Shown: piece by piece, positions 39,310-46,800 of the stretch
Layout of the letters: every line of letters begins with the position of its first letter
How positions within the stretch are numbered: the first letter of the stretch is position 1
Source of the DNA: a virus
Strand: one strand, 5' to 3'
IMG/VR virus record: IMGVR_UViG_3300044632_001218
Length of the DNA: 64,000 nt
Notes under the pieces: generated by a model
Database searches by the model: none
The model's input: only the letters and a program-made list of their open reading frames with translations
Told to the model about the DNA's origin: nothing
Translations under genes and position numbers: made by a program

Positions 39310-41600
39310 GCAACGGGTTAAAGGTAACTAAAAGAAATGGTATTATTCAATCACTTGATTTGGATAAGATGCATTTGATGGTTGAAGAGTCATGTAAAGG
39401 TCTTGCAGGAGTATCTGCAAGTCAAGTTGAGATGCAATCTGGAATTCAGTTCTATGATGGTATCACCACAGCAGAAATTCAAGAAATCTTGATTCGCTCT
39501 GCATCAGATTTGATTGATTTGGACCATCCAAATTATCAGTTTGTTGCAGCACGTCTTCTTCTTTTTTCACTTAGAAAAAGTTTGTATGGTGGTATCAAAG
39601 ACTTCCCTCACCTTGAGGAGCACATTAACAATTGTGTAGCAAAGGGAGTTTATGATAGTGAAATTTTTATCAAATACTCTAAAGAAGAAATAGATAGAGT
39701 AAATGGATTTATTGACCATGATAGGGATATGCTTTTTACCTATGCAGGTCTTCGTCAGGTAGTAGATAAGTATCTGGTACAAGACAGAAGTCTTGGTAAG
39801 GTTTATGAGACTCCTCAGTTCATGTATATTATGATTGCTCTGACAATCTTTGCAGAGTATCCAAAAGAAACTCGTTTGGAATATGTTCGTAGGTACTACA
39901 ATGCAATCTCAAAGCACAAAATCAACATTCCTACACCAATCATGGCAGGTGTTAGAACCCCACTTCGCCAATTTGCAAGTTGCGTTCTTGTTGATGTTGA
40001 TGACACCCTTGACAGTATCTTCAGCAGTGATATGGCAATTGGTCGCTATGTTGCTCAAAGAGCAGGAATTGGTATCAATGCAGGTAGAATCAGGGGCATC
40101 AATTCTAAAATCAGAGGGGGAGAAGTTGCTCATACAGGGGTTGTCCCATTCCTCAAAAAGTTTGAAGCAACTGTCAGATGTTGCACTCAAAATGGCATCA
40201 GAGGTGGAAGTGCTACTGTCCACTTTCCAATCTGGCACCAAGAAATAGAAGATATTATTGTTCTCAAAAACAATAAAGGAACAGAAGATAATAGAGTTAG
40301 AAAATTAGATTATTCTATTCAGATTAGCAAACTGTTCTATGAAAGATTTATTCAAGATGCAGAAATTACATTATTCTCTCCACATGATGTTCCTGGACTG
40401 TATGATGCTTTTGGCACTGACAGATTTGATGAGTTATATGTAGGGTATGAACAAAATTCAAGCATTCCTAAAAAGACAGTAAAAGCACAAAGTTTGATTC
40501 TTGACCTCCTCAAGGAAAGGGCAGAAACTGGTCGTATTTACATTATGAATATTGACCATTGCAACTCTCACTCTTCCTTCAAGGATAAAATTGAGATGTC
40601 AAATCTTTGTCAAGAAATTACTCTTCCCACAGTTCCTCTTCATCACATTGATGACCCTGAAGGTGAAATTGCATTGTGTATTCTTTCTGCCATTAATGTG
40701 GGTAAAGTTAAAGATGATGAAGAGTTTGAGGAACTTTGTGATTTGTCAGTAAGAGGATTGGAAGAACTGATTGATTATCAGAACTATCCAGTAGAAGCAG
40801 CAGAGATTTCTACAAAGGCACGCAGGTCTCTTGGAGTAGGTTTTATTGGACTGGCACATTATCTTGCTAAACTTGGGTTTAACTATGATTCACAAGAGGC
40901 ATGGGACGCAGTTCATGGTCTTTCTGAATCATTCCAGTATTTCTTGTTAAAATCTTCCAACCAGATTGCTAAAGAGAAAGGTTCTTGTAAGTATTTTAGC
41001 AGGACCAAATATGCTGATGGTATTCTTCCAATTGATACTTATAAAAAAGATGTAGACGAAATTTCCTCTATTACCTACCAACATGATTGGGAAACTTTAC
41101 GTGCCGAGATTCAGGCACATGGACTTAGACATTCAACATTGTCAGCACAGATGCCTTCGGAGAGCAGTTCCGTTGTGTCAAATGCAACCAATGGAATCGA
41201 ACCACCTCGTGGATTCTTGTCTATTAAAAAGTCAAAGAAGGGACCTCTTAAGCAGATTGTCCCCCAGTATCAAACTCTTAAGAGCAATTACACTCTTCTG
41301 TGGGACATGTCTAGCAATAGTGGTTATATCAACATTGTTGCTCTTATGCAAAAATTCTTCGATCAAGCGATTAGTGGAAACTGGTCCTATAACCCAGAGA
41401 ATTATCAAGACAATGAAGTCCCTGTTAGCGTGATGGCTCAGGATTTCTTATCCACATATAAGTATGGATGGAAGACAAGTTATTATCAGAATACATATGA
41501 TAATAAGACTGATGAAATAAAGGATGAACCAGTTAATTTAGATACACTTATTCAAGAACTATTAGAAGGAGAGGAAGATTGTGAATCCTGTAAAATTTAG
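39306..41600 (+). CDS. nrdA: Ribonucleotide reductase class Ia alpha subunit
   Basis: ATP cone, PTPIMAG, SCVL, SNLCQEI, SAQMPSESSS, C-terminal CESCKI. Confidence 0.98.
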   Translation: MSNGLKVTKRNGIIQSLDLDKMHLMVEESCKGLAGVSASQVEMQSGIQFYDGITTAEIQEILIRSASDLIDLDHPNYQFVAARLLLFSLRKSLYGGIKDFPHLEEHINNCVAKGVYDSEIFIKYSKEEIDRVNGFIDHDRDMLFTYAGLRQVVDKYLVQDRSLGKVYETPQFMYIMIALTIFAEYPKETRLEYVRRYYNAISKHKINIPTPIMAGVRTPLRQFASCVLVDVDDTLDSIFSSDMAIGRYVAQRAGIGINAGRIRGINSKIRGGEVAHTGVVPFLKKFEATVRCCTQNGIRGGSATVHFPIWHQEIEDIIVLKNNKGTEDNRVRKLDYSIQISKLFYERFIQDAEITLFSPHDVPGLYDAFGTDRFDELYVGYEQNSSIPKKTVKAQSLILDLLKERAETGRIYIMNIDHCNSHSSFKDKIEMSNLCQEITLPTVPLHHIDDPEGEIALCILSAINVGKVKDDEEFEELCDLSVRGLEELIDYQNYPVEAAEISTKARRSLGVGFIGLAHYLAKLGFNYDSQEAWDAVHGLSESFQYFLLKSSNQIAKEKGSCKYFSRTKYADGILPIDTYKKDVDEISSITYQHDWETLRAEIQAHGLRHSTLSAQMPSESSSVVSNATNGIEPPRGFLSIKKSKKGPLKQIVPQYQTLKSNYTLLWDMSSNSGYINIVALMQKFFDQAISGNWSYNPENYQDNEVPVSVMAQDFLSTYKYGWKTSYYQNTYDNKTDEIKDEPVNLDTLIQELLEGEEDCESCKI

Positions 41601-42765
41601 AGTTAATTCAGAAGAAAACAAAATGCCAGAAGGAATGACAGTATTTAATACAACACAAGTCAATACCAAAAAACAACCAATGTTTTTTGGAAACCCTTTG
41701 GGTGTTCAAAGATATGATCAATACAAATATCCTGTATTTGATAAATTAACTCAACAACAACTTGGATACTTCTGGAGACCAGAAGAAATTTCTCTTCAAA
41801 AAGATAGGGCAGATTATCATACTCTCAGACCAGAACAAAAACACATCTTCACATCAAATCTAAAGTATCAGATTCTTCTTGATTCAGTTCAAGGAAGAGG
41901 TCCTGGTATGGCATTTATTCCATACTGCTCTCTTCCTGAATTGGAGGCATGTATGACTGTATGGGAATTCATGGAAATGATTCACTCTAGGTCTTATACT
42001 TACATTATCAAAAATGTATACTCAGATCCATCAGAAGTTTTTGATACTATTCTAACCAACGACAAGATTTTGGAGAGGGCATCTTCAGTAACACAAGCTT
42101 ATGATGACTTTATTAATTCAGCACAAAAGTATGGAACTTCTAATGATTGGATATTTGCACAAGAAGGTGCAGGGTATGCTAAAGAAGAAAGAATTGAATT
42201 AAAAAGAAAACTTTACAGAGCAATTGCTAATGTCAACATTCTCGAAGGTATCAGGTTTTATGTCTCTTTCGCTTGCTCGTTTGCGTTTGGTGAACTCAAA
42301 CTTATGGAAGGATCAGCTAAAATTATCTCTCTTATCGCCAGAGATGAAAATCAGCATCTTGTCATTACTCAAAACATCATCAACAAGTGGCGTGAAGGAG
42401 ATGATTCAGAAATGCAACAAATTGCTAAAGAAGAAGAGGACTGGGTAATCAATGCATTCAAGACTTGTGTAGACCAAGAAAAAGCATGGGCACAATATTT
42501 GTTCAAGGATGGTTCTATGATTGGTCTTAATGATAAACTTCTCAACAATTATGTTGAGTGGATTGCTAATAGAAGAATGAGATCTATTGGTCTTAAGACA
42601 ATTTATGATATTGCTGCTAAAAATAATCCACTTCCCTGGACTGAGCACTGGATTTCCTCTAAAGGACTTCAAGTAGCACCACAAGAAACAGAAGTTGAAA
42701 GTTATGTGGTTGGAGGAATCAAACAAGACGTGAAGAAAGATACCTTTGCTGGATTCAAACTGTAG
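41581..42765 (+). CDS. nrdB: Ribonucleotide reductase class Ia beta subunit
   Basis: FWRPEE, EMIHSRSY, LEGIRFY, RDENQH di-iron motifs. Confidence 0.98.
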   Translation: MNPVKFRVNSEENKMPEGMTVFNTTQVNTKKQPMFFGNPLGVQRYDQYKYPVFDKLTQQQLGYFWRPEEISLQKDRADYHTLRPEQKHIFTSNLKYQILLDSVQGRGPGMAFIPYCSLPELEACMTVWEFMEMIHSRSYTYIIKNVYSDPSEVFDTILTNDKILERASSVTQAYDDFINSAQKYGTSNDWIFAQEGAGYAKEERIELKRKLYRAIANVNILEGIRFYVSFACSFAFGELKLMEGSAKIISLIARDENQHLVITQNIINKWREGDDSEMQQIAKEEEDWVINAFKTCVDQEKAWAQYLFKDGSMIGLNDKLLNNYVEWIANRRMRSIGLKTIYDIAAKNNPLPWTEHWISSKGLQVAPQETEVESYVVGGIKQDVKKDTFAGFKL

Positions 42766-42776
42766 CAGATTATACA
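42761..42776. promoter_or_regulatory. Candidate NtcA binding site TGTA-N8-TACA
   Basis: tGTAgcagattaTACa is a perfect match to the cyanobacterial NtcA consensus, about 25 nt upstream of the riboswitch. Confidence 0.65.
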
Positions 42777-42797
42777 AAATAAAATTATAAAATAATA

Positions 42798-42854
42798 TAC
42801 GTTCATTTGCTATTTGCAAATAGCAAACGGAAGTAGGGAAACTGAAGGAACGCA
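42798..42854 (+). ncRNA. Glutamine riboswitch (glnA RNA motif)
   Basis: P1 CGTTC(42800-04)/GAACG(42848-52); P2 from palindrome TTTGCTATTTGCAAATAGCAAA; conserved CGGAAGTAGG-GAAA-CTGAAGGAACGC E-loop/P3. Confidence 0.85.
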
Positions 42855-42884
42855 CCAATACCCATAAAGTAAAGGAGCAAACCT

Positions 42885-42965
42885 ATGGCGCTTATTTTAA
42901 TCAAACAAAAAATTATGAAAGAAAGAAGACTGTATGAAGCACAACTTCATATGGCAACTCGTTGA
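42885..42965 (+). CDS. 26-aa riboswitch-controlled basic peptide; missing from ORF track
   Basis: MALILIKQKIMKERRLYEAQLHMATR; AAGGAG RBS at 42872-42877; bounded by riboswitch and terminator. Confidence 0.75.
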   Translation: MALILIKQKIMKERRLYEAQLHMATR

Positions 42966-42972
42966 AGATTTG

Positions 42973-42999
42973 AGAGGGTCCTTGTGACCCTCTTTTTTT
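42973..42999 (+). terminator. Rho-independent terminator
   Basis: AGAGGGTC-cttgt-GACCCTCT plus T-run. Confidence 0.9.
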
Positions 43000-43006
43000 A
43001 TAAATA
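42999..43006 (+). promoter_or_regulatory. Late promoter TATAAATA
   Basis: Exact consensus before ATG 43027. Confidence 0.85.
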
Positions 43007-43026: not shown

Positions 43027-43638
43027 ATGGCTGGATTAAACAACATCAGAGAAGCATATGACCAAGTTTATGCTCAAGTGGTTGAGAGAATGGACCCAGA
43101 AGAAAGAGAACTGAGAAGAGCAGAGGTTGCTGATAGAAAGGCAAGTAGAATGGACTCTAAGGTTGCTGCTAAGTATGCAGGGTCAGAAGCACAATCAGCA
43201 GCAAGAGCAGATAAGAAATCAAAAGGTAAGCACATTCATGGAATGGCAGATTCCTATGATGTTGAAGGAGACCTTGTAGATGAAGCTAGAAAACCATCTC
43301 AAATTGCAAAAATAAAGAAATTGAATGCTCTGATGAATCAGAGACATCAAGAGAATGAAAAGGCAAGAAAGGAGATGATAGGAACTCAGGCACACAAAGA
43401 TATGGTGAAAGCTGCCTCAAGACATTTTGAAGAAACTGAACTTTCAGAAAGAGAACTTGACCCAACAGAAACCAGAGAAAAAGAAAGACTTGTAAAAGGT
43501 CTCAAGAAGTCTGCTGGTGATTTTAAACAAAGATATGGGGCAAGAGCAAAATCAGTAATGTATGCTACTGCCACAAAGATGGCTAAAGACAGGATGGACA
43601 CATCCAAGTCAGACAGGAGATATGGTGTTGAGGGATGA
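43027..43638 (+). CDS. Modular charged hypothetical protein, probable internal head protein
   Basis: Late promoter; basic modules after VVE, VDE and LSE linkers. Confidence 0.75.
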   Translation: MAGLNNIREAYDQVYAQVVERMDPEERELRRAEVADRKASRMDSKVAAKYAGSEAQSAARADKKSKGKHIHGMADSYDVEGDLVDEARKPSQIAKIKKLNALMNQRHQENEKARKEMIGTQAHKDMVKAASRHFEETELSERELDPTETREKERLVKGLKKSAGDFKQRYGARAKSVMYATATKMAKDRMDTSKSDRRYGVEG

Positions 43639-45560: not shown

Positions 45561-45631
45561 GCGGGTATAGTTTAGGGGTAAAATGCCATCCTTCCAAGTT
45601 GGAGTCACCAGTTCGAATCTGGTTACCCGCT
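45561..45631 (+). tRNA. tRNA-Gly (TCC)
   Basis: Acceptor GCGGGTA/TACCCGC, anticodon loop CT-TCC-AA, T-loop GTTCGAATC; no encoded CCA. Confidence 0.93.
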
Positions 45632-46531: not shown

Positions 46532-46602
46532 GGGGGTATAGCTTAATGGTAGAGCGGCCTGCTTATAACGGGTTGGTCTGGGTTCAATTCCCAGTATCCC
46601 TA
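46532..46602 (+). tRNA. tRNA-Ile (TAT)
   Basis: Acceptor GGGGGTA/TATCCCT, anticodon arm GCCTG-CT-TAT-AA-CGGGT, T-arm CTGGG-TTCAATT-CCCAG. Confidence 0.88.
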
Positions 46603-46604
46603 TT

Positions 46605-46800
46605 GTCCCGGTTATGACAAAAAACTGAGCCCTGGTCGGGAAAGAACCCCCTTCAGTCATGGAGAGACTTTAAAAATCCTGGTGGAGTCATATGACCCTC
46701 ATTAGGTTTCCAATTTCCTCAAAGAATTGGTGGTGCGGATGGAGGATACTCCCGCCTGGTTTCCAATTTCCAGTTAAAGAATTGGTGGCGAGCCTGCAAA
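46605..46800 (+). ncRNA. manA-type (or wcaG-type) cyanophage structured RNA upstream of gmd
   Basis: About 190 nt with two near-identical units GGTTTCCAATTTCC-N2/4-AAAGAATTGGTGG (46705-46733, 46758-46788), between a tRNA and sugar-nucleotide genes. Confidence 0.65.

Follow-up and report, generated by a model that had tools for sequence, protein, structure and literature searches.

The closest described systems are cyanobacterial. The gene gifB of Synechocystis sp. PCC 6803, which encodes the glutamine synthetase (GS) inactivating factor IF17, and the gene PMM1846 of Prochlorococcus MED4 are repressed by NtcA from sites in repressing positions and activated by glutamine, and both classes of glutamine aptamer raise expression when glutamine is present (PMC6212724). 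One of these classes, RF01704 (Glutamine-II), was named by Weinberg et al. after the open reading frames (ORFs) downstream of it; they counted YRG in 360 of 429 cases and allowed that some of the peptides may have no common origin (PMC2864571, supplement). Klahn et al. noted exceptions without Pfam matches among the riboswitch-linked proteins (PMC6212724). Besides this host circuit, glutamine riboswitches of cyanophages (PMC2864571, PMC9964418) and NtcA sites in cyanomyophage genomes (PMC3037559) are already known. Here, we analyzed a 64,000-nucleotide stretch of viral DNA, IMG/VR record IMGVR_UViG_3300044632_001218, which is referred to below as the window. Behind its nrdB gene lies a cassette of about 240 bases, which consists, in this order, of an NtcA-type box, a -10-like block, a glutamine riboswitch, a Shine-Dalgarno (SD) sequence, a 26-codon gene, and a terminator. 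This unit is probably the phage version of a cyanobacterial circuit in which nitrogen status controls the synthesis of a small protein.

The first-pass annotation of the window, made from its letters, had described a unit running from promoter to terminator. All six of the parts that it listed were recovered (Table 1), including the perfect TGTA-N8-TACA box, the TAAAAT block, an AAGGAG ribosome-binding site (42872-42877, 7 nt before the ATG), the unannotated 26-codon ORF, and a 9-bp G+C-rich hairpin (42972-42994) followed by a run of T. The glnA-motif riboswitch was confirmed with cmscan, which gave a match to RF01739 with 53.5 bits against a gathering score of 35 (E 6e-9, model positions 1-53 of 53). 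The phage aptamer is thus of type 1 and not of the Glutamine-II class. The cassette has a single aptamer core with a long first hairpin. In an alignment of 18 cassettes, judged by eye, compensatory changes were seen in both hairpins, the core was invariant, and the AGTAAAGGAGCA block was identical in 18 of the 18 relatives. An SD sequence and a short ORF (26-65 codons) follow nearly every phage aptamer at a distance of 19-37 nt, and these ORFs belong to several unrelated peptide families; in the window, 28 nt separate the aptamer from the ATG. The terminator folds with -14.2 kcal/mol (z -4.0), a value reached by none of 200 shuffled sequences, and equivalent hairpins follow the last ORF in most related cassettes. 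In other marine viral contigs (L003, L008, L010, L017, L019, L033, L068, L112, and many other loci), the genes behind glutamine riboswitches, often tandem aptamers, encode peptides of 28-65 aa that fall into at least five additional unrelated families, and these riboswitches often carry a TAAATA-type element 5-7 nt upstream. Genomes of SAR11, SAR86, and SAR116 also hold the type-1 aptamer, often in tandem (among loci L230-L308).

The window peptide has 26 amino acids and is basic, with a net charge of about +4. A profile was built from 14 phage peptides and used to search a collection of 5.8 billion proteins with a cut-off of E <= 0.01. This search found 584 related clusters of 26-60 aa. The best 120 of them are 29-40 aa long, lack a Pfam domain, and come from phage-sized contigs of at most 239 kb. 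A full HMMER search of 1.84 billion representatives gave 48 matches, all of at most 60 aa. The family is equivalent to phrog_545, and two of the matches, P0160 and P0149, are close homologues of the window peptide. Three basic positions are nearly invariant. The ratio of nonsynonymous to synonymous polymorphism (pN/pS) was 0.25 and 0.17 in two subfamilies, and the variable columns concentrate at third codon positions. By this substitution pattern and the size of the family, the 26-codon ORF is a real gene under purifying selection. The peptide is the only or first ORF in about 46 cassettes, as in the window. In about 52 it is the second ORF, translationally coupled to a DUF4278-like (YRG) ORF whose stop codon it overlaps, and another 20 have it as a fusion downstream of one YRG motif. 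Judged by this recurrence, the basic peptide is the constant component of the phage cassettes. No YRG or DUF4278-like ORF was found in the 64-kb window, and the window cassette is a minimal form, with one aptamer and the basic peptide alone. In one relative (L218), the reading frame runs from the first 16 peptide codons straight into the gene that otherwise stands after the terminator, which gives a 66-aa ORF; an apparent deletion has removed the 3' half of the peptide gene together with the terminator.

Searches for a described domain in the window peptide were negative. There was no Pfam match even at E 10, DUF4278 (PF14105) included, and no NCBIfam match, and the profile search against solved structures gave a chance-level match only (E 2.2). 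Neither the window peptide nor a 32-aa relative gave a tblastn match among the isolate phages, for which the low-complexity filter may be the cause. Nucleotide searches of isolate phages recovered the end of nrdB and three isolates with related cassettes only.

Homologues were found in the hosts. When the phage profile was run against 401 cyanobacterial genomes, nine matches were obtained, all in genomes of 1.7-2.9 Mb, and the matches cover the 25 N-terminal residues of 33-58-aa ORFs. The host ORF starts 15-20 nt after a Glutamine-II riboswitch (RF01704, 38-54 bits) in 8 of 8 loci of a first set, and in a second set RF01704 stands just upstream in 12 of 12. The two sets share five loci; together they comprise 15 distinct host loci, each with RF01704 directly upstream. 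A perfect GTA-N8-TAC box is present at three of the eight Glutamine-II peptide loci. The alignment of the host family with the phage family reached a probability of 96.7 % in hhalign (E 4.7e-10, 48 % identity over 27 columns), a score that is somewhat inflated, since the host matches had been chosen with the phage profile. The riboswitch context, which is unanimous, supports the homology independently of this score. In the joint alignment, the window peptide and the first sequence from a host share 54 % identity. We could show by these comparisons of sequence and context that the window peptide is the phage counterpart of picocyanobacterial small proteins encoded behind Glutamine-II riboswitches. 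Of 151 genomes from this family of picocyanobacteria, 63 contain the host peptide family. Nothing in the gene neighbourhoods of the host homologues hinted at a function, and the ESM Atlas yielded no usable match for the host homologue. An AlphaFold2 prediction for one host homologue (L352), run on the joint alignment, placed the conserved module in one helix (residues 3-27, predicted local distance difference test score 92-97), from which we infer that the window peptide may also form a single helix. One further host locus (L358:1408-1581, - strand) encodes the basic module at the N-terminus and YRG (DUF4278-like) motifs at the C-terminus; in the phage fusions, the two stand in the opposite order. 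In the literature on these riboswitches, as represented by the supplement of PMC2864571 and by PMC6212724, which cover the YRG/DUF4278 majority, we did not find this non-YRG peptide family described.

The NtcA-type box was tested as the perfect pattern GTA-N8-TAC, and offsets were counted from the start of the box to the CGTTCA of the aptamer. In the window alone, the box is not significant (2 matches where 1.3 are expected, a count equalled or exceeded in 37 of 100 shuffles). Its significance lies in its fixed offset across related cassettes and not in window statistics. Scanning viral contigs for the aptamer-core pattern yielded at least 120 loci, and a second scan for the leader type of the window (GAAGGAACGC ... 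AGTAAAGGAGCA) yielded 115 cassettes with enough upstream sequence. In 83 of the 115, the start of the perfect pattern is 38 or 39 nt upstream of CGTTCA; in another 11 it lies about 20 nt further out, at 58-61 nt. Counted over unique upstream sequences, the 38/39 offset holds in 61 of 77. Conservation in the window-leader family is 80-100 % at the half-sites, at four A's that follow TAC, and at a TAnATAA block beginning 13 nt after the box; in the columns upstream of the box it is only 30-60 %. A constant-distance box occurs only in loci with this leader, and other phage leader types show scattered offsets only. In cyanophages without the cassette, no box was found after nrdB. The palindrome noticed in the first-pass annotation is therefore more than a chance pattern: it is perfect, it stands at a fixed position in the window and most of its relatives, and by this conservation it belongs to the cassette. 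About one-tenth of the sister cassettes (L130, L138, L139, L150, L152, L153, L163, L184, L194, L219, and L016) have about 20 extra nt inserted upstream of the aptamer and downstream of the box. The insertion folds into a small hairpin, creates a near-consensus TTGACT-N17-TATAAT promoter, and moves the box by two helical turns.

The position of the box relative to the transcript bears on its role. NtcA-activated promoters have the site near -41.5, and the sites of repressed promoters cluster near -30 (PMC5714215, PMC6316151), with the NtcA site of Anabaena gifA at -28.5 (PMC6316151). The start predicted from the sequence of the window is at about 42799-42801, the 5' edge of the aptamer, about 31-32 bp downstream of the box centre. 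An intact first aptamer helix needs a start at or before about 42800, and therefore the box centre (42768.5) would be at -32 or closer, which is not the -41.5 geometry of NtcA activation. This argument covers transcripts that start downstream of the box and contain the whole aptamer, and it needs no mapped start. The first-pass annotation had proposed a repressor geometry with a start near 42800. Its geometric part stands to the extent that -41.5 is excluded for a transcript with an intact aptamer, and the start itself is still a prediction. By analogy with the host promoters, the box plausibly falls in the zone where NtcA-repressed promoters cluster.

These data suggest the following mechanism. 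A transcript of about 200 nt would run from the 5' edge of the aptamer to the intrinsic terminator, with the 26-residue peptide as its sole gene product. As in the host systems, binding of glutamine would open the strong ribosome-binding site and raise translation at high glutamine, and host NtcA, activated by 2-oxoglutarate, would hinder RNA polymerase at the box when nitrogen is scarce. Such a gate would be coherent because NtcA repression in nitrogen-poor cells and opening by glutamine point the same way; by this analogy both layers would have the peptide made in nitrogen-replete infected cells. It is plausible, from the behaviour of host gifB and PMM1846, that expression of the peptide is limited to such cells. 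The peptide would then act in trans on some host component of nitrogen metabolism or nitrogen signalling.

Several observations weigh against this mechanism, and most of them concern the promoter. The TATAAATA motif is found 10 times on the + strand of the window and never on the - strand, and eight of the copies lie within 80 nt upstream of ORF starts. It is therefore taken as the late-promoter motif of this phage, a clean T4-type late-promoter signal in the window. A T4-type late promoter has TATAAATA about 6-7 nt upstream of the start. At the corresponding place, 6 nt before the aptamer, the window has TATAAAAT, and many relatives have CTAAATAA. The -10-like element of the window failed the sigma-70 scan and is not an exact TATAAATA either; it resembles the late-promoter motif as much as a sigma-70 -10, and in most relatives it is nearer the late-promoter motif. 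The transcription start is predicted from sequence, and we found no mapped cyanophage late-promoter starts in the literature. If gp55, the phage late sigma factor, drives the unit, NtcA may or may not act on such a promoter. The one RNA-library contig over the unit (151 nt, 42756-42906) begins upstream of the box and could be nrdB read-through or contaminating DNA; since a 5' end is not revealed by a contig and DNA may be present in the library, it was taken neither as a mapped start nor as proof of transcription. Read-through from nrdB into the unit is possible. In the roughly 10 % of cassettes with the 20-nt insertion, the box is near -51, a position without clear meaning. As for the riboswitch, the candidate SD-sequestering hairpin (-3.8 kcal/mol, z about 0) is no better than shuffled sequences, and the candidate SD-pairing segment (42851-42856) is weak. 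Among the relatives, the 5' side of the linker varies with some complementarity kept, and the invariant SD side offers no covariation. Consequently, the ON polarity of the switch is assigned by analogy alone.

The same promoter data bear on the alternative that the box is not a repressor site, that is, that NtcA activates from it or that another regulator or no regulator uses it, and that the peptide is not limited to nitrogen-replete cells. Many GTA-N8-TAC sites in cyanomyophage genomes have been read as activating (PMC3037559). The long variants, with the box near -51, have it upstream of a near-consensus sigma-70 promoter, the 20-nt difference leaves the box on the same helix face, and the promoter may be of the late type. 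On the other hand, to put the box at -41.5 in the 83 short cassettes, transcription would have to start about 10 nt inside the first helix, which destroys the aptamer. GTA/TAC is moreover the signature of NtcA and not of CRP, the host counterparts are NtcA-repressed (PMC6212724, PMC6316151), and activation under starvation combined with a glutamine-ON switch would make an incoherent gate. We therefore consider this alternative rather unlikely, and repression of the unit by NtcA in nitrogen-poor cells is the preferred reading.

A second alternative concerns the target of the peptide: it may be a minimal GS inactivating factor, a functional analogue of IF7 that shuts off host GS at high glutamine. 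The cyanobacterial type-1 cassettes used for comparison were taken from genome contigs, and their ORFs are IF17-like or IF7-like. In most of them, GTA-N8-TAC starts 23-33 nt before the aptamer. Their products (L229-L307) are short YRG-only proteins, IF7-like proteins without DUF4278, or DUF4278 proteins with a tail, and this tail is either IF7-like or of a different conserved type (alignment A10). The control logic of the phage unit is that of gifB (PMC6212724). IF7 acts via three arginines (PMC6316151), and the basic phage peptide has its three nearly invariant basic positions. Its pairing and fusion with a DUF4278-like module recall the two-part IF17. An alignment of nine riboswitch-linked IF7-like cores showed three invariant arginines (R-x-L ... 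R ... L-x-R). The spacing of the conserved residues in the phage family is unlike that of IF7, and hhalign gave the family a probability of only 0.3 % against these cores and of 0.5 % against the second C-terminal type of riboswitch-linked DUF4278 proteins. By the former value and the lack of a DUF4278 match, the peptide is not detectably related to IF7 or IF17, which agrees with the first-pass remark that no such homology was evident by eye. The IF7-like core is present in 137 of the 401 cyanobacterial genomes and in none of the 9 that hold the peptide family, a complementary distribution that would fit such an analogue but is confounded by phylogeny, as the absence of full-length inactivating factors from picocyanobacteria is already known (PMC6316151). 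Among small cyanobacterial proteins under nitrogen control, there are some with other targets: PirA binds PII and NirP1 binds nitrite reductase (PMC8092223, PMC10907346). A complex prediction for a host homologue with two copies of its own GS scored 0.01, which is no evidence either way. A role as GS inactivating factor is thus improbable, and the link to GS drawn in the first-pass annotation found no support: the peptide has no similarity to the IF7 core and no DUF4278, and its relatives are Glutamine-II small ORFs. A more elaborate version has, in our opinion, a still smaller chance of being correct. In it, the peptide, which cyanophages and picocyanobacteria share and which is always gated by a glutamine aptamer, would be the missing IF7 counterpart of a lineage without IF7/IF17 and would block either GS or a different step in nitrogen assimilation. 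In nitrogen-replete cells, the phage would thereby raise 2-oxoglutarate and turn on its many NtcA-dependent promoters, and its own box would provide negative feedback.

That the ORF is a cis-acting leader peptide or a by-product of a regulatory RNA which is itself the functional product is very unlikely. In its favour, the ORF is very short, the peptide has no known partner, and Weinberg et al., where they discuss conserved residues of downstream peptides, raise a possible regulatory role for them (PMC2864571). Against it, a strong terminator directly after the ORF and the promoter of the next gene leave no cis target downstream, the amino acid sequence is conserved from phage to host behind two aptamer classes, synonymous changes predominate, and the peptide also occurs as a second coupled ORF and as a fusion.

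The coordinates of the unit and its flanks are given in Table 1. The window is part of a T4-like cyanomyovirus genome (nrdA, nrdB, tRNAs, wcaG RNA; nearly all genes on the + strand). The window DNA was matched at full length in many lake-water metagenomes, which identifies the virus as a freshwater phage. The stop codon of nrdB (42763-42765) falls inside the NtcA-type box, and the terminator scan revealed no terminator-like site between nrdB and the aptamer. The cassette is self-contained at its 3' end; on the 5' side, it is not set off from nrdB by a terminator. In the alignment of related cassettes, the unit from box to terminator recurs behind at least four unrelated upstream sequences. The T run of the terminator merges into the exact TATAAATA copy at the downstream edge, which stands 20 nt before the ATG at 43027 and, by the strand bias and position of the motif, is assigned to the next gene. 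In RNA-library contigs of two studies, 139 bases of that gene (43250-43390 of ORF 43027-43638) are replaced by 142 other letters, which points to a segment that is variable among close relatives. About 3-4 kb downstream of the cassette, there are two tRNA genes (45561-45631 and 46532-46602) and a full-length wcaG RNA (RF01761, 91.8 bits, 46702-46799).

Table 1. Features of the nitrogen-responsive candidate unit and its flanks (positions in the window).
Feature	Position	Strand	Basis
nrdB (ribonucleotide reductase beta subunit)	41581-42765	+	ORF list; 3' end matches annotated nrdB of many cyanophages
NtcA-type box TGTA-N8-TACA	42761-42776	no strand	Exact match; core GTA-N8-TAC 42762-42775, centre 42768.5
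A+T-rich -10-like element	42786-42795	+	Sequence; contains TAAAAT 42788-42793
Type-1 glutamine riboswitch aptamer (glnA RNA, RF01739)	42798-42856	+	cmscan
Linker with extended Shine-Dalgarno AAAGGAG (42871-42877)	42857-42884	+	Alignment, folding
26-aa basic peptide gene	42885-42965	+	ORF, family profile, pN/pS, host homologues
Intrinsic terminator: 9-bp stem, 5-nt loop, T run	42972-43000	+	Terminator scan, fold energy
TATAAATA late-promoter motif of next gene (ORF 43027-43638)	42999-43006	+	Motif count; downstream edge of unit

What is new here is the minimal form of the cassette and the connection of its peptide to a widespread riboswitch-gated host family, together with the negative test against IF7 and an argument on box geometry that does not depend on a mapped start. 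The control of GS in freshwater and marine picocyanobacteria and the roles of small proteins behind glutamine riboswitches are questions raised earlier (PMC6212724, PMC6316151). A second, non-YRG peptide family is now tied to glutamine aptamers in hosts and phages, and its window member is a candidate effector short enough to be synthesised. The phages offer a natural experiment, in that the peptide is retained, the class of aptamer is exchanged, and the DUF4278 partner is often lost. The unit is also a testable case of a lytic phage that would read host nitrogen status via two independent sensors.

The nearest relatives are the picocyanobacterial non-YRG ORFs behind RF01704. They share the module and its place directly downstream of a glutamine aptamer, and some have GTA-N8-TAC upstream. 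The host aptamer is of type 2, whereas that of the phage is of type 1; the host proteins are longer (33-58 aa) with variable tails, and the host box is nearer the aptamer. In gifB of Synechocystis sp. PCC 6803 and others, a non-activating NtcA box, a type-1 riboswitch, and a gene for a small basic protein are combined as in the window (PMC6212724). Unlike IF17, the phage product has neither DUF4278 nor an IF7-like core, the phage box begins 38 nt before the aptamer and not 23-33 nt, and the unit belongs to a lytic phage whose promoter may be of the late type. PMM1846/yfr6 of Prochlorococcus MED4 also joins a small protein, an NtcA motif, and a glutamine riboswitch that raises expression in nitrogen excess (PMC6212724, PMC6316151), but it encodes a DUF4278 (YRG) protein behind a type-2 aptamer. 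In T4-like cyanophages, glnA RNAs of the same aptamer class are represented by S-CREM1 (PMC9964418) and by Rfam entries. S-CREM1, DSL-LC02, and S-SRM01 share the leader of the window and carry a DUF4278-like gene, which the window lacks. The reports on cyanophage glnA RNAs list the RNA only, whereas the window presents it within a minimal cassette.

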